A stretch of DNA of 62,409 nucleotides, counting the filler, from Candidatus Tectimicrobiota bacterium (GTDB taxonomy: Bacteria; JACPSX01): NCBI GenBank assembly GCA_016193065.1. It is 7 parts of 7 records of this genome, joined end to end, with 100 filler letters (N's around TTAATTAATTAA, not from the genome) between each part and the next. Parts side by side here need not be neighbours in the genome. Positions count along the whole stretch, not along the records: positions 6,225 to 24,056 come from JACPSX010000259.1; 6 more parts are not named here. The stretch is one strand, 5' to 3'. How positions within the stretch are numbered: position 1 is the stretch's first letter; each line of letters opens with the position of its first letter. Of this stretch, positions 6,351 to 22,293 are shown piece by piece. The position numbers were made by a program, and so were the translations under genes. The notes under the pieces were generated by a model that did no database searches, was not told the origin of the DNA, and was given only the letters and a program-made list of their open reading frames with translations.

Positions 6351-6905
6351 TTATTTCAGGGTCTTCAAGAACGCCACGAGATCCTCCGCATCGTCCGGGC
6401 TCATCTGCCAGCGAGGCATGGTCCAGTCCAGGGGATTGCCGGCCGGATCAATCCCCTCTGTGATGGCTCGCTTGATGAGGGGATCGGTGTAAGGAGGATG
6501 CTCCCGGGTCTTTTCGTCTTCCCGATGTTCCTCCTTGGTGAGCGCCTCATAGCGGATGTCCGAAGGGATTGCGCCGCCCATCATCACCGGCACGCCGCCG
6601 CGCCCCTCCACGCCGTGGCAGGCCACGCAACCGCCCCCGCGCATCCCGATCCACATAGGGCCACCCCGGGCCGGGAGCGGTCCGGTCCTCTCGCTAACCC
6701 CCGTATAGTAAATTCGCTCTCCATTCGAGGCGTACCGCGTCTTTGGATACCACCCAGTGAACCATCTACCCGCCATTCCAGGTCCCATCATGCCGGGGGC
6801 CCAGCCCAGGTCCGGCTCCCACCCGCCGCCAGCGGAAAGGAGGAGGAGCCCGGCGCCGCCAAGGAAGATGAGGACCAGGCCGAAAACCGGATATCGCTTC
6901 CTCAT
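6351..6905 (-). CDS. Membrane-anchored monoheme cytochrome c
   Basis: N-terminal TM segment, Met/Gly-rich linker, CVACHG heme motif, distal Met in MPRWQMS. Confidence 0.85.
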   Translation of the reverse strand: MRKRYPVFGLVLIFLGGAGLLLLSAGGGWEPDLGWAPGMMGPGMAGRWFTGWYPKTRYASNGERIYYTGVSERTGPLPARGGPMWIGMRGGGCVACHGVEGRGGVPVMMGGAIPSDIRYEALTKEEHREDEKTREHPPYTDPLIKRAITEGIDPAGNPLDWTMPRWQMSPDDAEDLVAFLKTLK

Positions 6906-6933
6906 GACACTGTCTCCTTGTGCAGGCGACGGT

Positions 6934-7188
6934 CTACAGCAGGTCTCTCTTCTTTGCCTCGAATTCTTCCTTGCCGATCTCGCCCCGGGCATAGCGCTTC
7001 TTGAGAATATCAAGGGCGGACTCGCTGCCCGCATCCGAAGCACTTCCGCGTCTGCCCTGCTCGACGAACCACTTCACAACCAGGACGATTCCGACAATGA
7101 TCAGCGCCCAGAAGACCAGCATGAAGATCATCCCGAAAGCTCCACCGCTCCAGCCGCCACCCATCCCCCAGCCCCACGGCATCATCAT
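6934..7188 (-). CDS. SHOCT-domain membrane protein
   Basis: Met/Gly/Trp-rich N-terminus, one TM segment, C-terminal SALDILKKRYARGEIGKEEFE. Confidence 0.88.
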   Translation of the reverse strand: MMMPWGWGMGGGWSGGAFGMIFMLVFWALIIVGIVLVVKWFVEQGRRGSASDAGSESALDILKKRYARGEIGKEEFEAKKRDLL

Positions 7189-7251: not shown

Positions 7252-7715
7252 TCACCCCTCGATGAACGCGCGAATCCGCATCTGCTCCACCTCGTCGAGG
7301 GTGAGGATTTTCCCCGGCTTTGTGACCGCAATCTTGACGTCCATTTCCGGGTAAGGGGCAAGGTAGACAAACTCCGGATACCGCCGCACGACTTCGGCGA
7401 GGCGCTCAACCGTCCCGTCCGGGCAGCGAAACTTCACGCAGTTATAGTTGATAATGACCCCGGGGCGGCCACCGCCGTCGGCGTGTTCCAGCATGTGCTT
7501 TTGAATCGCCAGGGGCATGGGGGTCGTGAGGATGTGGCCGGGGGGCACCTCCTCAGTGTGACCAACGATCGAGGTTGGAGGGAGCCGCTTGGTTGTAGCA
7601 ATCGAGTACCCGAGCCATCCCAACCCGGCGGCGCCTCCTTTTGCCGGGCCTTGAGCTGCCGTCGCTCCGTTCGGGAGAGGCCGCCTTTGGCCTCTTCTTG
7701 GATCTGCCGCATCAT
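7252..7715 (-). pseudogene. DUF3105-like His/Cys protein, split by a frameshift near 7625-7635
   Basis: A strong RBS and ATG at 7715 give a basic N-terminus (MMRQIQEEAKGGLSRTERRQLKARQKE). The conserved-looking part (GWLGYSIAT...QKHMLEHADG...VIINYNC...LAPY) is in another frame, and most of the expected TM helix is missing. Confidence 0.5.
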
Positions 7716-7769: not shown

Positions 7770-8189
7770 TTAGTGGAGGGCCCAGCGAAACACTCGTACC
7801 GGGATGCCGGCCACGCCCTTCACGACCAGTTCAAGATTCTTCGGCTTCCGCTCCGGCCAGGCAAACCGAACGGTCGCTTTGCGGTGATGCCCACTCCCCT
7901 CGGCCCCCTCCACTGCCGTCGGCGCCAGCTCGCCGCCCCGCCCATCCCGCAACCGCACGATCTCCTCGAAGTGGTAGCTGTCCAGGTCCACCGAATGCGT
8001 ATCCAGAACCACCAGGAAGGTCGGGTCATCGCCACGCTCCGCGAGGAGCGTGACGTCTACCGTGACCCCACCCCCCCGGACCGACTGCTTTGCGCCGGGG
8101 GGCTCCTCAGCCGCGACCGGGCGCCCCGGCCCCATGAGAACCAGCGCGCCTGTCATCAGGATTCCCAACAGCATCCCTGCGAAGCCCAT
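7770..8189 (-). CDS. Exported hypothetical protein with His motifs (possible metal chaperone)
   Basis: Signal peptide; LDTHSVDL and GSGHHR motifs; GGAGG RBS. Confidence 0.7.
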   Translation of the reverse strand: MGFAGMLLGILMTGALVLMGPGRPVAAEEPPGAKQSVRGGGVTVDVTLLAERGDDPTFLVVLDTHSVDLDSYHFEEIVRLRDGRGGELAPTAVEGAEGSGHHRKATVRFAWPERKPKNLELVVKGVAGIPVRVFRWALH

Positions 8190-9263: not shown

Positions 9264-10235
9264 TCACCGCGCGACAGGGAGGCCGGGATCGGCCGCCCAC
9301 TCCACGAACGAGCCATCGTACAGGCGCACCTTCGGATACCCCAGGAGACGCAGCACAAAGTAGGTGTGGGAAGCGCGGACGCCCGTCCGGCAGTACACCA
9401 GGATCTCCTTGTCCGGCGTTACGCCCGCCCTGCGATACAGGCGCGCCAGCTCCGCGCCAGCCTTGAACCGCCGGGTCTCCGTTGGGGTGAGGTTTCGCAC
9501 CCAGTCCACGTTCACGGCCCCGGGGATGTGCCCGGGGCGCGACACTTCTCTCCCCGGGACCTCCCCATCGAATTCCTCGGGGGAGCGGCTATCCACCAGC
9601 ACCGCCGCGGGGTCGTCCAGGCGGGCCTTTACCCAAGCTGCGTCCGCAAGCCTGGTGGAATCAGGCGCCGCGCGATAGCGCGTGACCAGCGGTTGTGACG
9701 GATCACGGGCGACCGGCCGGCCCTCCCGCTGCCACAGCCCGAATCCCCCTTGCAGAACGCTCACCCGGGGGTGACCCATGAAATCCAGAGCCCAGAACAA
9801 CCGGGTCGCCTGATCGCCGCCGAAGTCGTCATAGATGACCACCCGGCTCTCGCGTGTTACCCCCCGGGCCCCCAGCGCCTGCTCCACCTCCCGGACGGGG
9901 GTCAGCATCCCGGGGACCCCGTTGATGGTCCGGCTAACCTCGGCGACGGGCAGGTTGACCGCGCCTGGAATGTGGCCGGCAGCGTACCGCTCCGGGCTGC
10001 GGGCATCGAGGATCCGGACCCCGGCTTCCCCGAGGTGGTCGGCCACCTCCTGTCCAGAGGCGAGGAGCGCCGCGTTCCCATAACCCTGGGCCTTCGCCTG
10101 GTCCCCCCAGCACTGCGCGTATCCTGTCGACGCGATCAGCAGCAGTACGGCAACCACTGCGCCGGCCCATGCCCACCGTTGTCTTACAGAGCTCAACACC
10201 GACCCCTCAGAGAAAAGCAGTCTCACCTTCTTCAT
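9264..10235 (-). CDS. Exported tandem-domain rhodanese sulfurtransferase (SseA/TST-like)
   Basis: Two GHIPGAVN repeats, active site YCRTGVRA, C-terminal LYDGSFVEW; N-terminal signal-like segment. Confidence 0.9.
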   Translation of the reverse strand: MKKVRLLFSEGSVLSSVRQRWAWAGAVVAVLLLIASTGYAQCWGDQAKAQGYGNAALLASGQEVADHLGEAGVRILDARSPERYAAGHIPGAVNLPVAEVSRTINGVPGMLTPVREVEQALGARGVTRESRVVIYDDFGGDQATRLFWALDFMGHPRVSVLQGGFGLWQREGRPVARDPSQPLVTRYRAAPDSTRLADAAWVKARLDDPAAVLVDSRSPEEFDGEVPGREVSRPGHIPGAVNVDWVRNLTPTETRRFKAGAELARLYRRAGVTPDKEILVYCRTGVRASHTYFVLRLLGYPKVRLYDGSFVEWAADPGLPVAR

Positions 10236-10318
10236 GGGCCATCTCCCCAGTCAGGAGGAGGATCGAGGCACCTCCAGAAAACGGATCAAGATTGGAAATC
10301 AGCGTTCGCCGGGGTGGA

Positions 10319-10597
10319 TCAGGCAGGCAATTCGGGGGGATGATCGATGGACTGAGCCAGGGACCAGATTGGATAGACCTCAGGCAAAGAACTTACGCCT
10401 GCATCCGGAAAAGCGTAGGGCACAAGAACAACCGGAAGGGGGATCTCCACGGAGCCGGCATTCAGGATGCCGCAGAAATCGCTGCTGCTCTGAGCAGGCG
10501 CAGTCGTCGCTGCTTCTGTACCCGGCACATCGAAGGCACAAAGGACGACCATTATAGTGAACAGGAGCAGGAAAATCTTTGCAGAATCAGATTTCAC
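10319..10597 (-). CDS. Small secreted/membrane leader ORF ending IDHPP (candidate CutF/DUF2946-like regulatory peptide)
   Basis: 92 aa: hydrophobic N-terminus ending in Cys, SSSDFC, Pro-rich tail SIDHPPELPA; first ORF of the sulfurtransferase block. Confidence 0.6.
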   Translation of the reverse strand: MKSDSAKIFLLLFTIMVVLCAFDVPGTEAATTAPAQSSSDFCGILNAGSVEIPLPVVLVPYAFPDAGVSSLPEVYPIWSLAQSIDHPPELPA

Positions 10598-10672
10598 CGT
10601 GGGTTCCCATCAATCCCGGCCTGCAAGGTTTCGGGAGGTTGGGCCTTCCTCCCGAGACCCGATAGGACTTCC

Positions 10673-10701
10673 TGGTTACCACCCCTGCCGGGGGCTGTCA
10701 A
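10673..10701 (-). promoter_or_regulatory. Candidate sigma70 promoter with a G/C-tract dyad in the spacer
   Basis: Minus strand TTGACA-GCCCCCGGCAGGGGTGG(17)-TAACCA; perfect -35, weak -10. Confidence 0.4.
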
Positions 10702-10932
10702 TGGGTATTTCTCCCTCAGCCAAAATGATCTTGTGATGCATTAACGTGCCCTGACAGGGCACTTATGCAATCCAAACTATAACAACCGCGCCAGCAAGAA
10801 CCTCCACACGCGGGGTCTCTGAGAAGGGGGTGGAGGCCCGCGACGGCGCGCCCGTGGCCGCCCCTGCCTGCGCGGTGCTGTTGCTCAGGGCGGCAAGCAG
10901 GCGGGTCTAGCCCAACTTTGACAACTCGGGGT

Positions 10933-11104
10933 GCTGATGATATTAAGCATTCTGAAGAGGAAAACCGCTTCTCTGCCCTCGGGCATACGGATAGCAGCAG
11001 GATGCTCTTTGTCGTATTCATTGTCGCGACGTGACAAAATACGGGTGATATCGGCAGGGGATATGAACCGCAAGGAAAGGAAGGTGTACGAGTCCCATGA
11101 ATAA
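10933..11104 (+). pseudogene. BrnT-family toxin remnant (5'-truncated, frameshifted)
   Basis: Manual translation DDIKHSEEENRFSALGHTDSSRMLFVVF / RRDKIRVISAGDMNRKERKVYE, with a one-base shift near 11025. Confidence 0.75.
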
Positions 11105-11361
11105 AAAGATACCCAAGTTCAAGAGCGAAGATGAGGAAGTTCTGGGCTACCCATGATTCCAGCGAGTACATCGGCTGGAAGAAGGCAAAACGGGTCGTAT
11201 TGCCCGAACTCAAGCCCTCGCTTAAGACCATCTCCTTGAGGCTTCCGGAGTCGATGATAGAGGAACTGAAGCTCCTTGCTCACAAAAGGGATGTGCCTTA
11301 TCAGTCGCTCCTGAAACTGTTCTTGTCGGAAAAGATAAGCGAGGAACTGAAGGCTCACTGA
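11097..11361 (+). pseudogene. BrnA/CopG-family antitoxin with a frameshift near 11135
   Basis: MNKKIPKFKSEDEE from ATG 11097, continuing in another frame as KFWATHDSSEY...KTISLRLP...KRDVPYQSL. Confidence 0.75.
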
Positions 11362-11397
11362 CGCACGGGTGACACCGGCGGCCGGAGCATTGTCTGC

Positions 11398-11460
11398 ATG
11401 CGAAGAACCAATATCGATCTTGACGAAAAACTGGTGAAGGCGGCTATGAGTCTCACCTGA
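11398..11460 (+). pseudogene. VapB-like antitoxin N-terminal remnant
   Basis: MRRTNIDLDEKLVKAAMSLT then stop; GGAG RBS; no vapC downstream. Confidence 0.55.
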
Positions 11461-12082
11461 CGCGCCGGGTGCCCGCCGACCGGGTCATCAACGCTCTTCC
11501 GCCCAGGGTTCGCAACCGCAAGCCGCCCAAGGCTCGCCCGCCCCGGGTGGTCGAGTTCCTCCGCAAGGCCCTCGAATGGTCCGTCGACCGGCGATCACTG
11601 AGCGCGCCCCTGGCCCATCGCGCAGCTCAAAGAGAACCGCGAGAGCAGTGGATCGCTTTTTCCGCGATGCAAGTATGAGAATCATGTTTCGGAAAGTGTC
11701 CGAAGCTACATGCCTCCAGCATCTTTCCGTCCGCTCGCACCATGAGCATCACCCTGCAGTCATCCCGAGATCTACTATATGGAGAGCAGGAATGCCTCGG
11801 AACTCGCCCCCATCGTCACTACAATCGGCGTACATCTGTCTTCACCAGACTCCTCATCAGGCATACTTATGTGGACGTTTAGCAGACGCAAACGTTGATC
11901 TGGATGCAAACCGAATCGGAGATTCGCACTGCGCAGTAGGGAGCGAGCGCGGTCCGGTAGGCGTCCTTCGCCCCGGCTTGGGCCTTCTCCAGCCCGCCCT
12001 TCGCGGTTTCAACCGGCTTGCGCAGGGCGTCGAGGCTCGAATGGGACTTGCAAATTAGAAATTTGTTTCTATAATACAAAAT

Positions 12083-13237
12083 ATGATCCGGCGGGCGGTA
12101 CGTGAGCTTGTTCTGGAACGCCTGGGGGCCTATCCGGCTGTGTTGCTCGTCGGGCCGCGCCAGTGCGGAAAAACGACCCTGGCCCGGGCGATCGGCGGGA
12201 CGTATTTCGACCTGGAACAGCAGCCCGAACGCCTGCGCCTCGACCTCGAATGGGAGACGATCGTCGCCCAGAGGAACCTGGTCATCCTGGACGAGGCCCA
12301 ATCCTGGCCCGAAGTCTTCGCCCGGCTGCGCGGAGCCATCGACCGGGACCGCAAACGCACTGGCCGTTTTCTGCTCCTGGGCTCCGTCTCACCCTCGCTC
12401 ATGGTGCAAGTGTCGGAGTCGCTGGCAGGTCGCTTGTCGCTGGTGGAGCTGACGCCGCTTCTATTGACCGAACTGAAAGCGAAGGTGTCGCAAGGCCGGC
12501 GATGGCTGTGTGGCGGCTATCCGGACGGCGGCGTGCTCGAACCCAAGCGCTTTCCCCGATGGCAGCGGGATTACGCGGCGCTCCTGTCTCAGCGCGACCT
12601 GCCGGCGTGGGGCCTTCCGGCCAAGTCGCAGACGACGGATCGCCTGCTGCGCATGCTGGCCGCGCTGAACGGCCAGGCCTGGAACGCCTCGCAGGTGGGC
12701 CAAAGTCTCGGCCTGTCCTACCAGACGGTCAACAGCTACCTCGATTATCTCGCGGGAGCCTTCCTGATCCGGAGGTTGCCGCCGTACCAGGCGAATCTCA
12801 GAAAACGATTGGTCAAGAGCCCCAAGATCTACTGGCGGGACAGCGGCCTGCTTCATACCTTGCTGAACGTATCGGACGAAAACACCTTGCTCGCCCAACC
12901 GTGGGTGGGTGCGAGCTGGGAGAGCTACGTGATCGAACAGGCGCTCGGGGTGCTTTCGAGCAAAGGGCGGACCTACGATGCCTACTACTTCAGGACCAGC
13001 GATCAATACGAGCTCGATCTCATGCTGGACTTCGGGAAGGATCTGTGGGCCATCGAGATCAAACTGACGTCCTCTCCAGGCCCCGAGGATATGGCCCGAT
13101 TGGACAAGACGGCCGATCTGGTCAAGGCGTCGCGGCGCTTCCTGGTCTCGCAGACTCGCCGACCGAGCGGCGATGAACGCCGCGTCTCTTGCGACCTTCC
13201 GTCCTTCCTCGATCGCCTCCGCGAGAACGAATCGTAA
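12083..13237 (+). CDS. AAA+ ATP-binding protein (AAA_14 + DUF4143)
   Basis: GPRQCGKTT, ILDEAQ, LLGS, ESLAGR, GGYP, KSPKIYWRDSGL, YYFRT..ELDL..IEIK. Confidence 0.9.
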   Translation: MIRRAVRELVLERLGAYPAVLLVGPRQCGKTTLARAIGGTYFDLEQQPERLRLDLEWETIVAQRNLVILDEAQSWPEVFARLRGAIDRDRKRTGRFLLLGSVSPSLMVQVSESLAGRLSLVELTPLLLTELKAKVSQGRRWLCGGYPDGGVLEPKRFPRWQRDYAALLSQRDLPAWGLPAKSQTTDRLLRMLAALNGQAWNASQVGQSLGLSYQTVNSYLDYLAGAFLIRRLPPYQANLRKRLVKSPKIYWRDSGLLHTLLNVSDENTLLAQPWVGASWESYVIEQALGVLSSKGRTYDAYYFRTSDQYELDLMLDFGKDLWAIEIKLTSSPGPEDMARLDKTADLVKASRRFLVSQTRRPSGDERRVSCDLPSFLDRLRENES

Positions 13238-13450
13238 AGGGGAAGGACTCCATCCAGCCGACCTCCTCCTTCGGGCTGACGTGCTTGTCGGTGTAGGCGC
13301 AGGCGGCCTTGTTGATGGACTCCTTGAGAGCGGCAAGGGGGATCACCTCCTCTTCCGTCCCGGGGTAGAGTGGCAGGCGGAATTTCTGAGATCCGGGCAG
13401 CTCAAGCAACAGGCACTGTTGCCCGTCCCCGGCATGAGGACGAACGGGTC

Positions 13451-13526
13451 GTCAAAAGCGATGGTTGAAAAATACACTCTTCACAACGCCCGCCGTATCC
13501 ATGACCACCCGCAGCACCATATGGTT
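13451..13526 (-). repeat. Direct repeat copy 1: duplicated 3' end of the metal-dependent hydrolase gene (att-like)
   Basis: 74/76 identical to 17248-17323; encodes NHMVLRVVMDTAGVVKSVFFNHRF*. Confidence 0.92.
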
Positions 13527-13824
13527 TCCCCCCTGCCCTGCGCAGGTGCTGAGCCGTAGGGACGACTTTGCCCTGGACGCTCGGCAGAAGCTGTCGTGCT
13601 TTCCGCTTGAAGCCCTCCGGGCAACGCGAATCACACGGGTCCGGCCAGCAGCCCAAGCAGCATTGTCCGGCAGGCGCGAGGGGTCGCCTCGGCCACCAAA
13701 GGTGCAATATCGAGATGTGCCCGTGCAGTGGCGACTTGTCCCGAACACTCTCCGCTGAGATCTCCCGGATCGGGAGCGCCACCTCGATCAGGCGGGGGCA
13801 AGTTGTGTCGTTTTGTATGGTCAT
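13527..13824 (-). pseudogene. DUF1156 DNA-methylase-associated protein N-terminal remnant
   Basis: MTIQNDTTCPRLIEVALPIREISAESVRDKS..HGHISILHLWWPRRPLA..WPDPCD; truncated against the direct repeat. Confidence 0.7.
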
Positions 13825-13946
13825 TTGCGTTCTCTCAGCATATACGCCCGGTACGGGTCCTTGGGACCGCTGCTTCGCCAGCGTAAACGGACAGGATACC
13901 TCGGCGAAGAGCTCGGACGCTACTCGGACATCAATATCGTCCGAGT

Positions 13947-14264
13947 TCATTTCCGAGCATGGCTGCTCATCAAGGAATGTGTTTCGGGCCAGCCGCGACT
14001 GCGCTCGTAGCGCATGGCCACGTCCATGGCGATGGACTCGACCTCGTTGTCCCGGCGCATCGGAACACCCTTCGACGGCCCTTCTTCCTCGCTTTCCACG
14101 GTGGCCATGGGCACTGGAGCAATCACGGCTTCCGTCAGGAGATCGGGGAGATCGGCGGTCAGGCGCTCGAAGCTGCGCACACCGAACAGGTCGAGCAGCC
14201 ACTGGTGGAGCACCAGCCGTTGCTCGAAGCGCAGTCTATCGGCTGTCTTCGACTGCCTGGGCAT
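13947..14264 (-). pseudogene. Chimeric remnant: type III Res-like N-terminus fused to a DUF3883-like helicase C-terminal fragment
   Basis: RFEQRLVLHQWLLDLFGV..FE.L followed by EVESIAMDVAMRYERSRGW; no complete domain. Confidence 0.5.
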
Positions 14265-14956
14265 CAGACTCCGATCCCCTGTCTAAGTCGTTCCAACTTG
14301 CGAATCCATTCGTCAAAGTGTCTGCACTTCGACCGGAGCGCGGAAAGCCCGATCTTTTCGGCCACCAGCGGTCCTGCGGAGACCTTCATCCCCTCATACT
14401 CCGGAATTTCCTTTATGATGCGCTTGGAAGGCGCGGCGTCATCCCCGTCGTCAATCAACTCGGGAGAATTGAATTCGGATGCCATCTGAATGAGGTTCTG
14501 AATAGCGGCGTCGTGTTCGAGGTATATCCAGTCCAGTTTTCGCGGGTCAGCCAACAACAACGCCTCAAACTCGTGAAGTTGAATGTACGGAACAAATCGC
14601 GAATTCCCAATGTCTTTGTGCATAGCATTTTCCAGAGCCGATACGCGACCATAGGGATCGGTTATCCCGTGTGCGTTTTCATAGCCGGGGAAATTGCTCG
14701 GCAAGGCGTAAAGGTCAAACATGGTGGTGAAGACCACGTCTGGATTCTGATCTTCCTTCATCCACAATTGGATGTCCCTCTTGGCTTGTTCGTAGCTTCG
14801 AAGACCGCCCCGATATTTGACCCCACGCTTTCGGCTTGTCATGACACAGCGGACCTTGCCCCAAACGGAGCAATTTGCCAGATGGGGAATCAGTATCCGG
14901 TTGACGAAGGTTTCCTCCGTTTGGCCTTCAACGATAAAGTGAAGCCTCACACTCAT
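14264..14956 (-). CDS. DUF4276 family protein (TOPRIM-like)
   Basis: LHFIVEGQTEETFV, TTMFDLY, PYIQLHEFEALL, PELIDD..APSKRI, CRHFDEWI; ATGA-coupled to the ATPase. Confidence 0.85.
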   Translation of the reverse strand: MSVRLHFIVEGQTEETFVNRILIPHLANCSVWGKVRCVMTSRKRGVKYRGGLRSYEQAKRDIQLWMKEDQNPDVVFTTMFDLYALPSNFPGYENAHGITDPYGRVSALENAMHKDIGNSRFVPYIQLHEFEALLLADPRKLDWIYLEHDAAIQNLIQMASEFNSPELIDDGDDAAPSKRIIKEIPEYEGMKVSAGPLVAEKIGLSALRSKCRHFDEWIRKLERLRQGIGV

Positions 14957-16065
14957 GCTGGCCGCCCTCCGAGCACATTCTTTTCCCACAACTCGGAGAG
15001 CGAATAGTTCTTCAGCCACTCCTCAAGGGCTCTGCCGTCCAAGCGACAAAACTTGGATTCTCGCTGTTCGCGCTCCACCACGACAATGTCGTTCGGCTCG
15101 AAGCAGTCAACGAGGGCCATCGATTGCGTTGCCACAATGACCTGAGTCTTCTCCGAAACGCCGCGAATCAGTCCTCCCACTAGGTTGATGGCGTAGGGAT
15201 GAAGCCCAAGCTCCGGTTCGTCGAGAATCAAAACATCTGGAAGGTCCCTTTCGGGCTGGAGGAGAAGCGTCACCAACGCCATCGCCCGCAGCATGCCGTC
15301 CGCAGCTTGCGATGCGTTGAACACTCGGTCACTGCTTTGCTCACGCCATTTCAAGAGGAGCCTGCTGTTCTCCGGCTCCAACTCGAAGTCGGCAAAGAAC
15401 GGCAGGATCAGCCGGATCGTCTCCACGATTCGCGAGTAATACCTGGGCTCATTTTGTTGCAAGCGGCGCAGGAAGGGTGCCAGGTTAGCGGCGTCTTCTT
15501 TGAGCCAGCGGTTGTCTTCCACGTCCCATTTGCTGCGCATTCGAGCCGTAGCCGAGGTGTTGTGGAACTGGTACACGATGATCTTGCGCAGGAGACCGAG
15601 AATCACTCGGGCCGTGGTATTGCCCTCGTCAGCCTTCGCGATGAGGTTCGGCTCCCGATGTCCGGCACCCAGTTCCTGCCAATAGGCTGGTGACGGCAAT
15701 CCCTCTTTGGAGAAACGGAATCGTTCATCGGTGTAAATCAGTGTATCGCCCGCGGCAAAGACGAGCCGAAAAGTATATTGGTTTTCCCCGGCGTTGGTCA
15801 CCAATGTCAGGTCAGCTTCGATTTCGCGGGTTATGGCCGGCCCATCGTGTAGCAGGGCACTCGCCCCGCCCAATTCGCTGACGTGAACTTGCAGGTTTCC
15901 AGGCGAAGCGAGCGTCCAGGAGAGCATTCGAAAGAAGGAGATGAAGTTCGACTTTCCCGCGCCGTTCGGACCGATGAGTACGGTTAGGGAACCGGGCTTG
16001 AAATCCGAAAGGTCGCGGATGGTCTTAAATCCCTTTAGGGTCAATTTCCCCAATCGGTTTCGCAT
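14953..16065 (-). CDS. ABC/SMC-like AAA ATPase (AAA_21 type)
   Basis: GFKTI, Walker A GPNGAGKSN, signature-like ADGMLR, Walker B ILDEPELGLHP; H-loop position reads VATQS. Confidence 0.9.
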   Translation of the reverse strand: MRNRLGKLTLKGFKTIRDLSDFKPGSLTVLIGPNGAGKSNFISFFRMLSWTLASPGNLQVHVSELGGASALLHDGPAITREIEADLTLVTNAGENQYTFRLVFAAGDTLIYTDERFRFSKEGLPSPAYWQELGAGHREPNLIAKADEGNTTARVILGLLRKIIVYQFHNTSATARMRSKWDVEDNRWLKEDAANLAPFLRRLQQNEPRYYSRIVETIRLILPFFADFELEPENSRLLLKWREQSSDRVFNASQAADGMLRAMALVTLLLQPERDLPDVLILDEPELGLHPYAINLVGGLIRGVSEKTQVIVATQSMALVDCFEPNDIVVVEREQRESKFCRLDGRALEEWLKNYSLSELWEKNVLGGRPA

Positions 16066-16074
16066 TGGTGCCTC

Positions 16075-16848
16075 CTACACGTCCTGCACGTCGAACATGA
16101 GCCGCCTGAATTCCTCCTCGATGAGCCGGACTTTCCAGGTCTGGTCGAGCTTGCGGAGGTTCTCCAGGTTGTTGTCGCCGTTCATGTAGATGACGTCGAA
16201 TTCCTGGTCCTTGGTGCTGTAGCCCTGCTTGCGCAACCACGCGTCGAGGGCCTGCTGTGGCCCCGTGCGCTTGACCTTGAGGTTGTTGAACGTGTCCTCG
16301 TAGGATTCGAGGCGGAGGACCTTCACAATACGCGGGCTGCGCTCGGCCTCTTCTTCCGTGGCCATCCGTTTCGGCTTTCCGTCCTTCCACTGGACGGGAC
16401 GAACATCGGACGCGCGGGCGCTGGCGAAGTGCGTCGACGTGACCACGATCTCGTCCGCCTCAAAGGGATTGGGCACCCCCCGAGCCTGTCGGTCCCGGTA
16501 CTCCTTCGCGTCGAGGATGACCGTCGGCAGGTTGAACTTCTCCGCGAGCTCGAGCGCCCACTGCTTGCGAATGGATGCGGGGCAGATGACGAGGAGCCGT
16601 CGCCGCCTTTCGGCCCAGAGCTGGCAGAGGACCAGGCCGGCCTCGATGGTTTTCCCAAGACCGACCTCGTCCGCGAGAAGGACGCCCTTGGAGATAGGAG
16701 ACCGGAAGGCGAACAGTGCCGCCTCGATCTGGTGCGGATTCAGATCAACGCACGCGTCGAAAAGGGACCGGGAAAGACCCTCCACCCCTGCCCCGCCGAT
16801 GCGGGTCAGCTCGCACGCAAAGTACTTGGCGTGGTAGGCCGTGCTCAT
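16075..16848 (-). pseudogene. In-frame chimera of an SNF2 helicase N-terminus and type III Mod methyltransferase C-terminal fragments
   Basis: LNPHQ..LLADEVGLGKTIEAG..ICPASIRKQW stops just before Walker B, then WKDGKP..LRLESYEDTFNNL and FDVIYMNGDNNL..LIEEEFRRLMF. Confidence 0.7.
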
Positions 16849-17069
16849 CGTGGAGTCTTCCCCTTCGGTCGCTTGTTCTCGCTTTCATCCAGCTCGCGTT
16901 TCATCTCCAAGAGTCGTTTTACGAGAAAAGGGAGGGGTACTCGCTTGCCGTTCTCCCAGTGGTTCACGGTGCTGTAGGTGACGCCGACCGTCTGGGCGAA
17001 CTGCTCCTGGGTGAGATCGAGCCGTTGTCGAAGCTCTTTGATGAGCGCCGGAATGGCCTCATTCTTCAT
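16845..17069 (-). CDS. XRE-family HTH regulator (controller-like)
   Basis: IKELRQRLDLTQEQFAQTVGVTYSTVNHWENGK; GAGG RBS; coupled to the helicase start. Confidence 0.85.
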   Translation of the reverse strand: MKNEAIPALIKELRQRLDLTQEQFAQTVGVTYSTVNHWENGKRVPLPFLVKRLLEMKRELDESENKRPKGKTPR

Positions 17070-17122
17070 GGAGCCACCTCGAACCTTCATTTTGCGGACG
17101 CGATGGGAACATGTAGGGCGAT

Positions 17123-17152
17123 ATGCTAGCTTACATGATGGGGTGTTGTCAA
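17123..17152 (-). promoter_or_regulatory. sigma70-type promoter for the island operon
   Basis: Minus strand TTGACA-N18-TAGCAT. Confidence 0.5.
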
Positions 17153-17247
17153 TCTTCCTTCTCGTCCCGGGGCCGGAGTGGCTGGAATCCGGACAGACCA
17201 CGCTGCGGGCATCATCGTCCGTCTCCCGGCATCGGGGCAGGTGGGCG

Positions 17248-17323
17248 GTCAAAAGCGATGGTTGAAATATACACTCTTCACAACCCCCGCCGTATCCATG
17301 ACCACCCGCAGCACCATATGGTT
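17248..17323 (-). repeat. Direct repeat copy 2 (3' end of the intact hydrolase gene)
   Basis: 74/76 identical to 13451-13526. Confidence 0.92.
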
Positions 17324-18187
17324 GGTCTCCCCGTCAGCCCCAAAGCGGATGTCGCGGTATTCGACGATGTGCTCCCCGCCACTCTCGAGATAACGGATCC
17401 AGGGAAAGCGGGCGAACCACAGGAACAGGCGAACCGATTCCGCCGCATCGCTCCGCTCCACATAGCGGTTCCGGGGTGCCTGAATGTAGGAGCGAACGTC
17501 CATGTTGCCGCCGGGCCAGGGGGCCACTGCAGCCTGGTACAGGCGACCAGGCGCCTGAGCCACGGCCCTCCATCGGAAAGGGCTGTGAAGGCGGGGAACT
17601 ACTCCGATCCGGTCGGCCGCGATCACTCGCCGGTCCAGCTCCGCGGCAAACCGCGCCTGGGCCGCCGCCTTGGCCCCGGCAGCCAGGGCAAGGTAGAGGA
17701 CCGCAACGCTCAGGCCGGCCCACACCGCGCGCGCTGCAAGTCGGGGCCGCCGCCAGGCCACCAGCAGGGGGACGGCAAAGGTGGCGGTGAGGATCGGATC
17801 TATGATGAAGGCCAAGTCCCAGGCCAGGCGCGCGTCGCTGAACGGATAAAATACCTGGATGCCGAACGAAGTGATCAGGTCCAGGCCGATGTGGACCAGA
17901 ATTCCGAGGTAGACCAAACCCACGAGCTTCCCATACTGCTTGTGGGCACCCCACCGGTAGATGGGCCAGGCAACCAGAAGGGCCAGGAGGATCCCACCGA
18001 GGAGCGAGTGAGTCAGTCCTCGGTGGTACTTGATGGCCGCAAACTGATCCCAGAGCCCCATGACGCTGTCCAGATCCGGGGCGATTGCACCGGCGGTCAC
18101 CGCCAGGAGAGCAGACCGACCAATCCGCTGGCGGAAGCCCGCGTTGGCCACTGCGATACCGGATAGGGTGTGAGTTATGAAGTCCAT
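17249..18187 (-). CDS. Inner-membrane metal-dependent hydrolase (YdjM-like)
   Basis: MDFITHTLSG, PDLD, HRGLTHSL, HIGLDLITSFG motifs with TM segments. Confidence 0.88.
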   Translation of the reverse strand: MDFITHTLSGIAVANAGFRQRIGRSALLAVTAGAIAPDLDSVMGLWDQFAAIKYHRGLTHSLLGGILLALLVAWPIYRWGAHKQYGKLVGLVYLGILVHIGLDLITSFGIQVFYPFSDARLAWDLAFIIDPILTATFAVPLLVAWRRPRLAARAVWAGLSVAVLYLALAAGAKAAAQARFAAELDRRVIAADRIGVVPRLHSPFRWRAVAQAPGRLYQAAVAPWPGGNMDVRSYIQAPRNRYVERSDAAESVRLFLWFARFPWIRYLESGGEHIVEYRDIRFGADGETNHMVLRVVMDTAGVVKSVYFNHRF

Positions 18188-18269
18188 GTACGATACGTTC
18201 TCCCGCAGGTGGGTCCGCGTCGAGCCAGTGCGAATTTGATCCGCAAGCTGGCCCGACCGCCTCGATCAT

Positions 18270-18707
18270 TCAACGCTGCCGATTCCCCAAAGGGAAACCG
18301 GCTCTCTGCCAGGCAATCATGCCGCCCTTCAAGTCAAACACATTTGTGTAACCCAATCCAGCCAGAGTCCGCGCGGCAATTTCCGACATTGTCCCGCTGC
18401 GGCAGTAGATAACGATCTTTGCCTTCTTATCTTTGGGGAACCGGTCCAGGTTTCTCTCCACTTCATTGTATGGCACATGGAGATCCGTGCCCTTTATCTC
18501 TCCTTCGTACGGGATGTGGACGTTGACAAAAAGAAAGTCCTTTGCCCTGAGAATCTTTTCCAAATCTTTTGCCGTCAGTTCGGCGTACTTTGCCACCTGG
18601 TTCTGCGATCCAGACTGTTGCGCAAACGCATCCCGAGTGGAAAAAGAACTGGCCAAGATAACAACCAGCCCGATAAGAATTCCCTGAACCATCCCTTTGA
18701 CAACCAT
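18270..18707 (-). CDS. Exported single-domain rhodanese
   Basis: Signal peptide (..DAFA), YCRSGTMS active loop, LKGGMIAW; GGAGG RBS. Confidence 0.85.
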   Translation of the reverse strand: MVVKGMVQGILIGLVVILASSFSTRDAFAQQSGSQNQVAKYAELTAKDLEKILRAKDFLFVNVHIPYEGEIKGTDLHVPYNEVERNLDRFPKDKKAKIVIYCRSGTMSEIAARTLAGLGYTNVFDLKGGMIAWQRAGFPLGNRQR

Positions 18708-18810
18708 CTCTCCTCCCTCCTGTCCATCCTCCTGTTTCAGCGCCTCGCCCTGAGTACCTGATCTCTTCTGAACAAACCCGGTTAGCAACCACTTGCCAGA
18801 AAAGAAAAAA

Positions 18811-19242
18811 TTAAAGATCCGGATCGTACTTGGGCCGCCGATCCCAGAGCACTGGAAACGATGGGGCAGGAACAACTTCGGGCCGCCGGATCGGGAAAGA
18901 GTAACTGCAAACCCCGCCTAGGTCGCGCAGATCCCGCTCATCAATGGGGAACCGCTTGCACACGTCAGGCCTGCACGTGTTGTAGATGAGGCAGCAGTCT
19001 CCCTTGAGGTAAGGGCAGGAAAAAACCAGTTTGCAGCAGGCGCCGCACTGGTTGCAGGAGCCCTGCCGCAGGGTCATTTGTTGCTCGACGTAATGCAGGG
19101 CAAACAGGCAGAACCCAAATCGCCTGATTTTTCCCCACAACAGGCGCAGTCCTCTGACAGAAAAAAACGTCGGTACAACCGTAAGACAACGAAAGGGATG
19201 GGCGAGCATCTTCGCCACAATGATCGACTGGCCTCTGAGCAC
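18811..19242 (-). CDS. YkgJ-like CxxCxxCC cysteine-cluster protein (start uncertain)
   Basis: CNQCGACC..CPYL..CLIY..RPDVCKRFP. Confidence 0.7.
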   Translation of the reverse strand: MLRGQSIIVAKMLAHPFRCLTVVPTFFSVRGLRLLWGKIRRFGFCLFALHYVEQQMTLRQGSCNQCGACCKLVFSCPYLKGDCCLIYNTCRPDVCKRFPIDERDLRDLGGVCSYSFPIRRPEVVPAPSFPVLWDRRPKYDPDL

Positions 19243-19277
19243 GTTGGTCCTCCCGATGGCATCTAAAATTCAAATCC

Positions 19278-19697
19278 TCAGGGACTGGCAATAAATTTCT
19301 CCATGTAGCCTTTGGCTTCCTTACTGGCCCAATCCCGACTCCCGACGGCCTCGGCGGCAACCCTGCCGAGACGGTCAATCAGATAGGTCGTGGGTATCCC
19401 CCGCACCCTGTAGAGCGAAGCGACGGCTCCATCCCGATCGAGCAGCGGAGTGAAGGTCAAATTCAATTGTTGGAAGAAATCCTTCACCCGTTCGGGCCTC
19501 TCCCGGATATCAACCGCCAGCATGACCAAGCCCCGGTCTTTATAGAGATTGTACAGCTTCTCCATGGACGGCATTTCCCGGCGGCAGGGGGGACACCATG
19601 TGGCCCAGAAGTTAACAAAGATAACGTTCCCTCGCAAGTCCTTCAGTCGAACTTTTCGGCCATTTAAGTCAGGAAGCGTGAAATCCGGAGCCTCCAC
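19278..19697 (-). CDS. TlpA/ResA-family thiol-disulfide oxidoreductase (N-terminus uncertain or lost)
   Basis: APDFTL.DLNG, VNFWATWCPPCRREMP, GIPTTYLID; no signal or TM segment between it and the oxidase stop. Confidence 0.82.
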   Translation of the reverse strand: MEAPDFTLPDLNGRKVRLKDLRGNVIFVNFWATWCPPCRREMPSMEKLYNLYKDRGLVMLAVDIRERPERVKDFFQQLNLTFTPLLDRDGAVASLYRVRGIPTTYLIDRLGRVAAEAVGSRDWASKEAKGYMEKFIASP

Positions 19698-19750
19698 CTT
19701 CTCTTTAAGTACTTGCAGCCGCAGGGCAGAGGCATAAGGGACCGACCCGG

Positions 19751-21265
19751 CTAGGCTACCCCTCTGTACTCGAACACGCTTGCCATGCCAGTGGCCAGGT
19801 GCCACTCGATGTGGCAGTGGAACAGCCAGCGCCCGGGGTTGGTGGCAGCCCACTGAAGCACAAGCGTATTTCTCGCCGGGACGTCCACCGTGTCCTTCAA
19901 CAGGGGATCGGTCAGGTTGAGACGGTCCGGCCTGCCCAGTACGTAGAACGAGTGGCCGTGCAGGTGCATCGGGTGATCCATTTCCGTGGGGTTCTCCAGG
20001 ACGAGACGGATCGATTCCCCCCGCTCAACCGGGATCGGGGAGGACTGGGGATAGGCCTGGCCGTTGATGGTCCACGAATACGGCGCCATGTTCCCACCCA
20101 TCTGCAGGGTCACCTGGCGAAACGGCGCCCGAGCAAGGTTCACCGGCTCCAGCGGGCGCAGCATGGCGAGGGTGAGCGCCCTGCGCCCCCACACCACCGG
20201 ACCCGGGCGCGGCTCGGCCGGGCGTGCACCCCGCGTGCGGAGGATCGCCCGGACCTCCTTGCCGTCCAGAGTGACCGCGCGAATCCAGTACGCGCCCGCC
20301 CGTTTTCCCTCCACGAGGACGTCGTAGCGCTCCCCAATGGAGACCAGCAGATTGTCCACCGTGACCGGCTTTACGGGGGTCCCGTCAGCGGCAATGACCG
20401 TAAGAGGGTGACCGTCGATCTGGAACCGGAACGCGTAGGTGGAAGAGGCGTTGATGATCCGGAACCGGATTCGCTGGCCCTGGCCCACCTCAAAGGTGGT
20501 CAGGGGGCTTTTGGTGTCGCCGGGCGCGCGTCCCCGGCCGTTGATCAGGCCCATCTCGAAGGGGACATCGGCAATGTCGGCCATCTCTTCCATCTTCATG
20601 CCCGGCATGTGCCCCATTTGCATCCCCTGCATTCCCCCCCTCTCCCCGGCACCTCCACGGATCAGGCCCTGGAGGATCTCCTCGGAAGGTTTGCGGAACC
20701 AGTCGTTGATCACCAGCACCTCGTCCCGGTCGTAGTTGCTCCGCTCCTCCCGGCGCTCGATGATCAGAGGGGCAAGGAGCCCCTCGGAGTATTGGACCCC
20801 CGTGTGGGAGTGGTACCAGTGAGTCCCTGCGGGGCTGGCGAGAAACTCGTAGATGAATTCGGCTCCAGGCGCGATCCCGGCCTGAGTGAGCCCTTCCACA
20901 CCATCCATCCGCCAGGTCCCGATCTGATGCAACCCGTGCCAATGAATCGTTGTGGGCCGGGCCAGTTCATTTTTCACGCGGATCCGAAACATGTCCCCCT
21001 CGGTGGCACGGATGATGGGGCCCGGTACTTGCCCGTTATAAGCCCAGACCTCCCGTTGAACCCCGTAAGGGGCTCCGGGCAGTATGCCTACCCGCAGAGA
21101 AAACGGGATGACCCGGCCTGCTTTTTCCTGGGCGTTTGCCTTTCCAACCGGGAGCCCTCCCACCAGCAATGGGCTGAGCAGTAGGGATCCTCCGGCAGCC
21201 CCCGTCACAGACAAAAACCGACGTCGACTCATAGAAAGATTCATCTTTCTGTGCTCATTTCGCAT
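19751..21265 (-). CDS. Tat-exported three-domain multicopper oxidase
   Basis: SRRRFL Tat motif; HWHG, WYHSH, HPMHLHG, HCHIEWHLATGM copper motifs; Met-rich insert GMQGMQMGHMPGMKM. Confidence 0.95.
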   Translation of the reverse strand: MRNEHRKMNLSMSRRRFLSVTGAAGGSLLLSPLLVGGLPVGKANAQEKAGRVIPFSLRVGILPGAPYGVQREVWAYNGQVPGPIIRATEGDMFRIRVKNELARPTTIHWHGLHQIGTWRMDGVEGLTQAGIAPGAEFIYEFLASPAGTHWYHSHTGVQYSEGLLAPLIIERREERSNYDRDEVLVINDWFRKPSEEILQGLIRGGAGERGGMQGMQMGHMPGMKMEEMADIADVPFEMGLINGRGRAPGDTKSPLTTFEVGQGQRIRFRIINASSTYAFRFQIDGHPLTVIAADGTPVKPVTVDNLLVSIGERYDVLVEGKRAGAYWIRAVTLDGKEVRAILRTRGARPAEPRPGPVVWGRRALTLAMLRPLEPVNLARAPFRQVTLQMGGNMAPYSWTINGQAYPQSSPIPVERGESIRLVLENPTEMDHPMHLHGHSFYVLGRPDRLNLTDPLLKDTVDVPARNTLVLQWAATNPGRWLFHCHIEWHLATGMASVFEYRGVA

Positions 21266-21378
21266 TGAGTAGCTCCTCGAACTTCTGTGAGAATCCGGCA
21301 CCAAACGGCTTACGACCGGCCCGTGCCGCCAACAACTCCAGCGAGCGGGTTCGATCGGAAAAGGAATCTGGCGAGGAC

Positions 21379-21627
21379 TTAGGATCGGGGCGGCCTGTAG
21401 GGAAGGGAGTCCATCCGGGGGGGCACGGGACGAGCAAAAAGCCAGGAACCCCAGATGATCGAGAGAAACAGGACGAGGCCAAAGGAGCCGATTGCCAGAG
21501 CCAGGCAGAAAGAGCTGTGGTCCTGGAGATGGGAAAAGGATGAAGCCAGCCCGCTGGAGGGGGCAACCAGGCAAACAATCCCGGATACAACAACAAAAAA
21601 GGCCAGCACACTCGCTGCGGTCTTCAT
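21379..21627 (-). CDS. Small leader ORF ending YRPPR (candidate CutF/DUF2946-like regulatory peptide)
   Basis: 82 aa from ATG 21627 with GAGGGGG RBS and its own promoter: hydrophobic N-terminus with Cys, HLQDHSSFC, second hydrophobic stretch, Pro-rich tail PVPPRMDSLPYRPPRS. Confidence 0.68.
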   Translation of the reverse strand: MKTAASVLAFFVVVSGIVCLVAPSSGLASSFSHLQDHSSFCLALAIGSFGLVLFLSIIWGSWLFARPVPPRMDSLPYRPPRS

Positions 21628-21658
21628 TGTCCCCCTCTGGTCTAAAAGTTCGTGTTTC

Positions 21659-21687
21659 ATTTTAACGAAAACCAATCTCTTCGACAA
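21659..21687 (-). promoter_or_regulatory. sigma70-type promoter for the leader ORF/oxidase block
   Basis: Minus strand TTGTCG-N17-TAAAAT, about 30 nt upstream of ATG 21627. Confidence 0.5.
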
Positions 21688-21765
21688 CCGCATCCCCCAG
21701 AAAGTTCCCGCGATCCCCTTTCGGCGAAACTCTTCCCCGAGTTCCCTGTTGCCCGCAGGTCTTCT

Positions 21766-22104
21766 GTGATAGAATCCTCGAAAAACAGTCCGAGCCGAAT
21801 CGTCAGCGAGAGGGAAGAAGAATACTTCGCCCGCGTCGAGTTCGAGCGCAAGCAGAAGGAAGCCCAGGAGCGGGAAGCAAAGCTCAAGGAAGAGGAACGC
21901 CGGCAGCGCAAGGCCCTCCACTTCATGTGCTGTCCCAAGTGCGGCATGGAGCTCATCGAGATCGAGTACAAAGGGGTGAAGATCGATAAGTGCAGCGACT
22001 GCGCGGGAGTGTGGTTGGATTGCGGGGAATTGGAACGGATACTCGGCACGGACAGGAATTTCCTCGCAGAAATGCTGGACATCTTCCGCCGCAAAACCGA
22101 TTAG
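21766..22104 (+). CDS. zf-TFIIB zinc-ribbon domain protein (start uncertain)
   Basis: SEREEEYFAR coiled coil, then CPKCG..IDKCSDCAGVWLDCGELE. Confidence 0.8.
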   Translation: MIESSKNSPSRIVSEREEEYFARVEFERKQKEAQEREAKLKEEERRQRKALHFMCCPKCGMELIEIEYKGVKIDKCSDCAGVWLDCGELERILGTDRNFLAEMLDIFRRKTD

Positions 22105-22159
22105 GTCTCATAGGACTATGCCAATCCCTGCATCAGGCATGCTTCTCCCCCTCTCTTCT

Positions 22160-22293
22160 GAGACTGTGTGATAAGTCCGTTCATGGTTCGCCAGGCTCAC
22201 CACGAACGGATGATGACAAACAGAAAATCAATCACATAGCCGTTCGCCCTGAGCGTGTCGAAGGGCGAATAGCAGATTGCGACACAGTATCTC
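22160..22293. repeat. Composite REP/MITE-like element (CCGTTC..GAACGG family)
   Basis: Imperfect terminal inverted repeats GAGACTGTGT / ACACAGTATCTC enclose two palindromes, at 22177-22209 and 22240-22269. Confidence 0.7.

Follow-up and report, generated by a model that had tools for sequence, protein, structure and literature searches.

Two small open reading frames (ORFs) of like layout head two blocks of metal-related genes in the genome of a Candidatus Tectimicrobiota bacterium (GCA_016193065.1), which raises the question of whether they encode peptides that regulate the genes behind them. The stretch of DNA analysed here (the window) spans 62,409 nucleotides in seven parts joined end to end, and its positions 6225-24056, which hold both ORFs, form a single 17.8-kb contig (JACPSX010000259.1) of a 2.9-Mb, 86%-complete metagenome-assembled genome (MAG). 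The public runs that carry this stretch are groundwater metagenomes from one study, and no RNA run is among them. An initial inspection of the DNA, here called the sequence-only reading, had proposed that the two ORFs (ORF A and ORF B) represent a new family of secretion-coupled, metal-sensing arrest peptides. Metal sensing by a nascent exported chain is so far represented by two studied proteins only, CruR and CutF, and by one Pfam family, with the two proteins acting in opposite directions. On comparative evidence, we consider it moderately likely that ORF A is a member of a new family of co-translational, export-coupled metal-sensing arrest leaders. For ORF A this interpretation has good comparative support, and for ORF B it is weak.

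Two ORFs with a shared layout

The two ORFs and their landmark residues, all on the minus strand, are as follows.

10319..10597, minus strand: ORF A, 92 amino acids, GTG start and TGA stop; member of the 'SIDHPP' family, 124.3 bits to the family profile
10538..10594, minus strand: ORF A residues 2-20, N-terminal hydrophobic export helix closing on Cys20 (10538-10540); helix 2-21 in the AlphaFold2 model
10472..10474, minus strand: ORF A Cys42 (FCG motif), 44 residues before His86; this spacing is found in 49 of 56 members
10331..10366, minus strand: ORF A residues 78-89, WSLAQSIDHPPE, candidate arrest segment, near-identical in 12 loci
10340-10342, 10337-10339 and 10334-10336, minus strand: ORF A His86, Pro87 and Pro88, invariant in 35 of 35 sequences
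21379..21627, minus strand: ORF B, candidate leader of 82 amino acids with an ATG start; putative marginal paralogue of the family
21571-21573, 21505-21507, 21388-21396 and 21418-21426, minus strand: ORF B Cys19, Cys41, RPP and VPP

The layout reported in the sequence-only reading is present in both peptides. Each begins with Met-Lys and a hydrophobic helix that ends in Cys (VVLC at Cys20 in ORF A, GIVC at Cys19 in ORF B), and a second Cys follows 22 residues on, within SSDFC in ORF A and SSFC in ORF B, succeeded by five residues and Gly-Ser. Both peptides also close on prolines, ORF A with HPP plus four residues and ORF B with RPP plus two. The initial observation was largely right.

ORF A belongs to an unnamed family

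We used ORF A as the starting point of a search for homologues. A word-indexed search returned two relatives, and pattern scans of genome and metagenome collections gave two plus nine public loci, one of them in a Candidatus Methylomirabilis MAG. When a profile of 11 members was compared with 1.84 billion protein representatives, 51 matches were obtained at E<=1e-3; five of these, which are long (574-4546 amino acids), multi-stretch and low in complexity, were set aside. The resulting collection comprises 46 representatives and 11 public loci. Within the phylum of genome G002 (Methylomirabilis-type), the family occurs in 8 of 251 genomes and is present in two copies in two of these.

The three members that bear a name in their source are all called 'hypothetical protein'. 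No Pfam family was matched by 11 members at E<=10 apart from one stray match to DUF3868, and DUF2946, the family of CruR, was matched by none of the 11. Likewise, no NCBIfam model was matched at E<=0.1 by ORF A or by members P0005 and P0040. The comparison with the DUF2946 profile (PF11162, cut-off 23.7 bits), which could have removed the novelty of the proposal, did not do so: neither ORF A nor ORF B matches it at E<=1, and no match at that threshold exists elsewhere in their own genome. Five of the 251 genomes in the G002 phylum, to which most of the loci belong, have a PF11162 match at E<=1e-3, one of them above the cut-off, and none of these genomes bears the family. The family that includes ORF A is real and unnamed. 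The claim of a new family thus holds for ORF A, with ORF B being at most a marginal relative.

A cysteine at a fixed distance from a diproline

Every family member is built from an export helix that closes on Cys, another Cys, a linker of variable sequence and a C-terminal HPP (SIDHPP in ORF A). Across 35 aligned sequences of 24-52% identity to ORF A, no column is invariant other than C20, H86, P87 and P88, and the second Cys is nearly so. All 35 also have a basic N terminus followed by a hydrophobic stretch of about 14 residues. Conservation of the Cys pair and of the proline tail, which the proposal required of homologues, is therefore borne out: the first Cys and HPP are always kept, and the second Cys nearly always. 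The first Cys is preceded by Gly, Ala or Ser in only 16 of 35 sequences and by Gln, Leu, Val or Glu otherwise (judged by eye), and a lipoprotein reading of this residue was rejected.

Among 56 members, the distance from the second Cys to His is 44 residues in 49, 43 in three and 42 in two, the second Cys being absent in the remaining two. The first Cys, by contrast, floats. It lies 19-24 residues before the second and 60-68 residues before His, and thus insertions and deletions are tolerated ahead of the second Cys but not after it. Despite its fixed length, the stretch between the second Cys and HPP is the most variable part of the peptide in sequence. The terminal motif takes the form [DEQY]HPP, and the diproline lies 1-7 residues from the stop in 55 of the 56 members. 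The tail after it consists of four residues in 46 members, one residue in five, seven in four and 35 in one. Tail sequence is variable, and conservation ceases directly after the second Pro. One member, P0042, has lost its C terminus entirely.

The fixed 44-residue distance between Cys and His and the abrupt end of conservation after the diproline, neither of which the sequence-only reading had foreseen, strengthen the arrest-peptide reading. Both features are harder to reconcile with the idea that the family is a small mature periplasmic protein, such as a metal-binding factor or a CzcI-like partner, whose C-terminal dodecapeptide is a binding epitope and which acts after release with no programmed pausing. 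Such a protein would suit the export signal, the conserved Cys, His, Asp and Glu residues and the constant location in metal operons; CutF-like proteins that lack the proline motif do exist (CzcI; PMC9973294), clusters named CzcI are among the neighbours of the family by language-model features, and in one locus (L032) the genes downstream encode a histidine kinase and a sigma-54 regulator. However, a linker that varies in sequence yet is fixed at 44 residues, with insertions and deletions only before it, is difficult to explain for a mature protein, whether folded or disordered. Conservation also ends exactly at the diproline, and five members stop one residue later. The family ORF is also always first in its operon, with a conserved spacer length behind it.

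Structure prediction points the same way. An AlphaFold2 model built on the 35-sequence alignment has a mean predicted local distance difference test (pLDDT) score of 60, and only helix 2-21 is confident (pLDDT 83-88). Short helices are placed at residues 40-47 and 77-81, and pLDDT falls below 50 at residues 27-37 and 52-76. The low scores outside the N-terminal helix do not indicate a globular mature protein, and we regard the mature-protein explanation as unlikely.

The segment WSLAQSIDHPPE forms the last 12 residues before the tail in 12 loci. Ten of its positions are invariant, and the exceptions, W and the first S, are each changed in one of the 12 loci. At most of its positions the codons nevertheless vary synonymously, with the sets TCC/TCG/TCA/TCT/AGT, CTG/CTC/CTT/TTG, GCT/GCG/GCC, CAG/CAA, ATC/ATT/ATA, GAT/GAC, CAT/CAC and GAA/GAG. 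Synonymous changes under fixed residues indicate selection on the peptide rather than on an RNA or DNA element, which speaks against an operator or riboswitch-like leader, with an incidental reading frame, as the reason for the conserved 3′ end of ORF A. One codon pattern does favour such an element. The two Pro codons of the diproline are CCC, CCT or CCA in the 16 family loci and never CCG (0 of 32, from loci that are not independent), compared with 36 CCG among 131 other Pro codons of the same ORFs, and the resulting CCYCCY is complementary to a Shine-Dalgarno sequence. The lack of CCG at this site also counts in favour of the arrest-leader reading. We judge a nucleic-acid element to be very improbable.

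The family heads metal-related operons

Gene context was read in 16 distinct loci with readable downstream DNA. The family ORF stands first, and in 10 loci the next gene begins 81-91 nt downstream. In 8 of the 16 loci this downstream gene encodes a secreted protein rich in M-x-x-M or GMM repeats, as judged by eye from translations, and only one of these eight proteins reaches a Pfam family, Metal_resist. The metal-linked domains encoded downstream are Metal_resist, HMA, YHS, E1-E2 ATPase, Cu-oxidase, YtkA and NicO-like, the NicO-like transporters falling below the Pfam cut-off. Other recurrent products are DUF3105 proteins (six loci) and YdjM proteins (four loci), along with DUF302 proteins and cytochromes c.

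Taken together, a Met-rich protein or a metal-linked domain is found downstream in 11 of the 16 loci, which agrees with the expectation that homologues of ORF A would lie upstream of genes for metal-related exported proteins. For example, one member (L031) is followed by a multicopper oxidase and then a DsbA-like protein, and another (L030) by a YHS and HMA protein and a P-type ATPase. In L033, which has an HMA-repeat ATPase gene downstream, the leader is a weak family member ending in TVDHPP. In L005, the homologue is followed by a tandem rhodanese and beta-propeller pair, just as ORF A is in the window. With Cys and HPP kept, a metal context and no match to DUF2946, the proposal of a new family stands for ORF A.

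Two further observations concern the genes behind the family. At positions 4370-4447 of L005, a ninth locus, the Met-rich gene has been cut down to a 25-codon ORF (MKQMSGMMERMAEMQKRMSEMLGAT). A different small ORF (MA.PEL.CRL.MTCPGSLRALT..) is common to L007 and L014 and lies about 85-90 nt after the family ORF.

A model for sensing by the nascent chain

The most likely interpretation of the comparative data is that peptides of the ORF A family act while being made and not as finished proteins. Their architecture parallels that of CruR and CutF, in the order export signal, Cys, about 45 residues, diproline and short tail. What the data establish is the family with its conservation pattern, fixed spacing and gene context; export, stalling, metal sensing and the direction and route of regulation are inferences. 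If this model is correct, the N-terminal helix would bring the nascent chain to the Sec translocon, and slow peptide-bond formation at the codons for SIDH-P-P would cause the ribosome to pause. The ribosomal tunnel holds roughly 30-40 residues. A Cys that is 44-46 residues behind the peptidyl-transferase centre would thus be just outside the ribosome when the Pro-Pro bond forms, placing it in or just past the translocon during the pause. The state of this Cys (Cu(I)-bound, free or in a disulfide, perhaps with the Cys at the end of the helix) could then set the pulling force on the chain and hence the length of the pause, which in turn would govern how strongly the copper-handling genes, beginning 81-91 nt further on, are expressed. 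Since these genes look to be of a detoxification type, a CutF-like logic, wherein metal lengthens the pause and turns the genes on, is likelier than the logic of CruR. Either local unmasking of the ribosome-binding site (RBS) or protection from Rho could serve to transmit the pause. ORF B, if it works, would do so with a different geometry ahead of the oxidase block.

Several observations weigh against this model. The position from which the 44 residues are counted carries a single Cys and not CXXC, and that Cys is absent from one fragment and from one full-length member, P0047. Immediately behind ORF A lie genes for a rhodanese and a beta-propeller protein, which are not classic copper genes, and a genome of the same genus (G001) lacks ORF A and ORF B as well as orthologues of the oxidase and the rhodanese. 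Neither arm of RNA analysis helps: RNAalifold on nine loci returned 0 conserved pairs, and folds representing 'stalled' and 'terminating' states gave no consistent change in how free the Shine-Dalgarno sequence is. PPE-type sequences depend on elongation factor P (EF-P). A diproline alone is normally resolved by EF-P (bioRxiv 10.1101/2025.02.05.636593), and DHPP is not among the described arrest motifs, 'HPP' being absent from PMC10987492, PMC12992588 and PMC9973294. Indeed, no DHPP or HPP motif tied to stalling was found in the literature searched.

Promoters, spacers and RNA coupling

The sequence-only reading had also proposed that each ORF follows a predicted promoter and that the spacer behind each is 83-113 nt long, with a 5′ end complementary to the next RBS. 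The features concerned are the following.

21659..21687, minus strand: sigma-70-like promoter match upstream of ORF B, TTGTCG-17-TAAAAT; 1 found, 0.2 expected
10236..10318, minus strand: spacer of 83 nt from ORF A to the rhodanese gene; no conserved structure
21266..21378, minus strand: spacer of 113 nt from ORF B to the oxidase gene; in a fold of the spacer only, UCCUC after the stop pairs with the GAGGA Shine-Dalgarno sequence

The spacer lengths are confirmed. The promoter claim stands for ORF B, upstream of which there is one match, and fails for ORF A, where a scan of positions 9900-11200 for sigma-70 sites gave none. In 8 of 10 aligned loci (L004, L005, L007, L008, L009, L011, L012 and L014), a conserved promoter-like element of the form TTGACT-17 nt-TA[CG]CAT is present upstream of the family ORF, at a distance of about 30 or about 100 nt from the start codon; in the window this element is merely degenerate (TTGGCT..).

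Complementarity between the spacer 5′ end and the next RBS is present, but it is at chance level for both spacers. The duplex energy for ORF A is -13.0, compared with -12.6+/-3.1 for shuffled heads (42% as good or better), and for ORF B it is -9.7, compared with -8.9+/-2.4 (34% as good or better). The RNA part of the initial interpretation is unsupported. According to the spacer-only fold, which concerns one sequence only, a ribosome at or near the ORF B stop would open the UCCUC-GAGGA helix.

Minimum free energy folds in short context pair the H-P-P codons with the next Shine-Dalgarno sequence in 5 of 10 loci, a pattern that would also fit the nucleic-acid element considered above. However, this pairing is lost in longer context, and no covarying structure was found. 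Unmasking of the RBS by a stalled ribosome was tried as an explanation and rejected: the H-P-P pairing is gone with 90 nt of upstream context, and opening the ribosome footprint gave no gain in accessibility. In 15 of 16 loci, C outnumbers G over the 60 nt that follow the stop, a count made with no background control, and this C-over-G bias is a weak hint of a rut-like, Rho-type route as in CruR.

ORF B, a possible marginal relative

ORF B is the ATG-started part of a longer open frame, and GAGGGGG is located 5 nt 5′ of its ATG. Upstream of the ATG, this longer frame overlaps with a divergent zinc-ribbon gene. At window position 21803/21804, inside the N-terminal part of that gene, the public contigs of two runs have 39 bases more than the window, which is an assembly or strain difference. 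In contigs of four runs from one study, the ORF B region shows almost no differences.

Pairwise similarity between ORF A and ORF B is weak, with 9 of 26 identities and a BLASTP E value of 0.027. A profile of 57 family sequences scores ORF B at 16.4 bits and aligns only its N-terminal 51 residues. Among 22,629 six-frame ORFs of the genome (>=40 amino acids), however, the ORF B frame ranks second after ORF A, at 19.5 bits (E 9.6e-4), a gap of 10 bits to the third (9.4 bits, E 1.3). Comparison of ORF B with the family by hhalign yields P 0.0015 over 35 columns, with a reported probability of only 16.7%. A pattern drawn up post hoc (hydrophobic run, Cys, 21 residues, Cys and [HR]PP 1-6 residues from the end) matches ORF A and ORF B and no other of the 22,629 ORFs, a result that is descriptive and does not amount to an independent test.

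These results have to be set against the possibility that ORF B is unrelated, being either an open frame that occurs by chance in the 5′ part of the oxidase transcript or a membrane peptide of two helices with no link to the family, and that its likeness to ORF A stems from signal-peptide-like composition and coincidence. Along with the weak BLASTP and hhalign results, several features fit that explanation. ORF B ends in RPP (and has VPP), not HPP; the distance from Cys41 is 37 residues to Arg78 and 27 to Val68, not 44; its tail is two residues rather than four; and its middle part is a second, hydrophobic helix in place of the polar linker of the family. A word-indexed search of 5.8e9 clusters found no homologue other than ORF B itself, which is recorded only from Logan gene calls. 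In the 900 nt upstream of 26 oxidase homologues (three further loci were left out of this survey) there is no ORF B-like ORF, the best score being 2.5 bits. Its diproline codons are CCG CCC.

Conversely, ORF B retains the same Cys-21-Cys spacing and SSxFC context as ORF A, and it has a strong Shine-Dalgarno sequence and a promoter-like site. Its codon-usage score is positive and so favours the frame, but it is unremarkable and not decisive. ORF B also heads a block for an oxidase, a thioredoxin-fold protein and a YdjM protein, repeating the kinds of gene that stand behind a true family member in L031. We find it doubtful that ORF B is unrelated, and put at about one half the chance that it is a diverged paralogue of the family still acting as a leader.

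Sub-threshold matches of ORF B to MerTP (NCBIfam, E 0.031) and TMEM43 (Pfam, E 0.0075) were taken as composition effects and rejected. The survey of oxidase homologues also brought up a 108-amino-acid ORF about 200-520 nt upstream of the homologue in L038 (genome G205). It has an N-terminal hydrophobic segment, several Cys residues and the C-terminal sequence ..APRSPPSLAA, and it matches no Pfam family at E<=1; it could be a further type of leader that ends in prolines and precedes an oxidase.

Gene blocks behind ORF A and ORF B

The genes behind the two ORFs in the window are listed in order of transcription, first those after ORF A and then those after ORF B.

9264..10235, minus strand: exported tandem-rhodanese protein, first gene after ORF A (PF00581, E 1.6e-44); same arrangement in L005
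8222..9214, minus strand: YncE/cytochrome-D1-like beta-propeller protein; probable start MTYAKRR.., read from the translation
7770..8189, minus strand: exported protein of 139 amino acids, no Pfam or NCBIfam family; 68% identical to a protein of the L004 operon
7252..7623, minus strand: DUF3105 protein, partial match (PF11303, E 2.1e-6)
6351..7043, minus strand: cytochrome c domain protein with a Met/Gly-rich N-terminal part (PF00034, E 1.3e-7)
19751..21265, minus strand: multicopper oxidase with a twin-arginine-like leader (PF07731, PF07732, PF00394)
19278..19853, minus strand: TlpA/AhpC-type thioredoxin-fold protein, by profile match
18811..19242, minus strand: Cys-rich protein, no Pfam or NCBIfam match
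18270..18875, minus strand: single-domain rhodanese, by profile match
17249..18187, minus strand: YdjM-family membrane protein, 70% identical to YdjM of the L004 operon

The L004 operon, which is headed by a homologue of ORF A, links these two blocks. The 139-amino-acid protein behind ORF A is identical to its L004 counterpart at 89 of 131 positions, and the YdjM protein behind ORF B is identical to that of L004 at 219 of 314. Thus, both window blocks contain families that stand behind a single leader elsewhere. The 139-amino-acid protein represents a family of its own (about 140 amino acids, ..GAKQSV.GGGVTVDVT..HH..) encoded by the second or third gene of the operon, with homologues in L004, L009 and L028.

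The DNA between the copper blocks holds other genes. On the plus strand are a CopG-type antitoxin gene (11131-11361), for which no toxin partner is obvious, and a gene for an AAA_14/DUF4143 ATPase (12083-13237). A 99-nt direct repeat (13428-13526 and 17225-17323, 89% identical), which duplicates the 3′ end of ydjM, flanks a 3.8-kb segment with genes for an AAA_21 ATPase (14953-16065) and a DUF4276 protein (14264-15019), a SNF2 fragment and a helix-turn-helix gene. The ATPase and the DUF4276 protein match PADLOC HEC-01A/B with E values of 1.5e-130 and 4.2e-78 and are AriA-like. In public contigs, one in each of two runs, position 13407 is joined to 17213 and 3805 nt are absent, and this defence insert therefore looks polymorphic in the population.

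Comparison with known arrest leaders and metal proteins

If the model is correct, a second, unrelated family would share the geometry of the studied metal-sensing leaders, and the design of export signal, thiol, about 45 residues and diproline near the stop would be general. The family would then offer an independent system with which to test what the fixed spacing measures, and DHPP would be a new arrest motif in a catalogue dominated by R-A/G-P-P. Annotators could also use it to recognize copper-resistance operons in little-studied phyla, in which the genes now go by 'hypothetical protein' or are not called at all.

The closest parallel in organization is CruR (Bordetella pertussis Bp2923; DUF2946, PF11162). 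Both CruR and the family are small exported upstream ORFs that head copper-related operons, and both place a Cys motif at a fixed distance from a C-terminal X-X-Pro-Pro that lies 3-4 residues before the stop. The interval comprises 45 residues in CruR, conserved to within 1-2 (PMC9426467), and 43 residues between Cys and His in the family. More than 95% of DUF2946 proteins carry an export signal, and CXXC and, three residues from the C terminus, RAPP are further marks of these proteins (PMC9426467). Later in vitro work demonstrated that CruR is arrested when the two Pro codons occupy the P and A sites (PMC12992588). The family, in contrast, has a single Cys (FCG) and DHPP, in which Arg-Ala is not kept. 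The intergenic region is 162 nt in CruR and 81-91 nt in the family, and DUF2946 occurs mostly in Proteobacteria whereas the family is found in uncultured groundwater lineages. Furthermore, CruR represses an uptake system in copper, whereas the genes behind the family look to be of a detoxification type.

Published work presents CutF, encoded upstream of a multicopper oxidase, as a copper sensor that is exported by Sec and stalls at a proline motif in its C terminus (bioRxiv 10.1101/2025.02.05.636593). The proposal for CutF is that copper bound at a periplasmic Cys motif leads to a stall at PPP, which opens a stem-loop over the RBS of the oxidase. In Rhodobacter capsulatus (cutFOG), CutF directly precedes an oxidase exported by twin-arginine translocation, as ORF B precedes its own oxidase. 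It differs from the family in having CXXXC and two more Cys residues, PPP, and a demonstrated stem-loop over the cutO Shine-Dalgarno sequence, whereas no conserved stem-loop was found for the family.

Other arrest peptides resemble the family in part. The RAPP-like 'RQH' peptides (ApdA, ApdP) share with it an N-terminal localization signal, a variable body, X-X-Pro-Pro near the stop and a patchy phylogenetic distribution (PMC10987492, PMC12992588). However, their motif is [RQH][AG]PP (PMC10987492) where the family has D/E-H-P-P, and they lie upstream of secA, secDF or yidC rather than metal genes. The 17-residue SecM sequence FSTPVWISQAQGIRAGP (PMC11669330), aligned with the family tail with no gaps and anchored on the last Pro, agrees at 5 of 17 positions (S, A, Q, I and P), and Trp is shifted by one position; this likeness was judged by eye, with no statistical test. 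SecM and the family both have an N-terminal signal, but the key Arg of SecM corresponds to Asp in the family, and the gene downstream is not secA.

Among metal proteins, the nearest named clusters to the ORFs by language-model features are CzcI, DUF6769 and DUF6660 (0.91 for ORF A and 0.85-0.86 for ORF B), although none is matched by the family in profile searches at E<=10. According to PMC9973294, CzcI has no C-terminal proline motif, whereas the family has one. Most of the ORF A neighbours that have a name are 'DUF2946 domain-containing' clusters (0.91, with low shared-feature counts), which is a lead only. One RAPP-ending DUF2946-type protein from the G002 phylum (L065) ends in ..S-I-R-A-P-P plus four residues and so resembles the ..S-I-D-H-P-P plus four of the family; hhalign of this single protein with the family profile gave a probability of 1.8%.

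On these comparisons, the family may be either a remote offshoot of DUF2946 or a convergent design. We tentatively entertain, at somewhat under an even chance, the bolder view that it is an undescribed arrest-peptide class with no detectable homology to DUF2946, which would have converged independently both on the spacing of about 45 residues between thiol and stalling site seen in CruR and CutF and on a tunnel segment (S-x-A-Q-x-I) like that of SecM. On this view, periplasmic Cu(I) would be read by the Cys at the translocon together with that of the signal helix, operons for copper resistance would thereby be turned on in groundwater bacteria that are as yet uncultured, and ORF B would be a duplicated and re-tuned leader. 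As a concept, such a leader is not new, given CruR and CutF; in the literature searched, the family, its motif and its 44-residue ruler seem not to have been described before.

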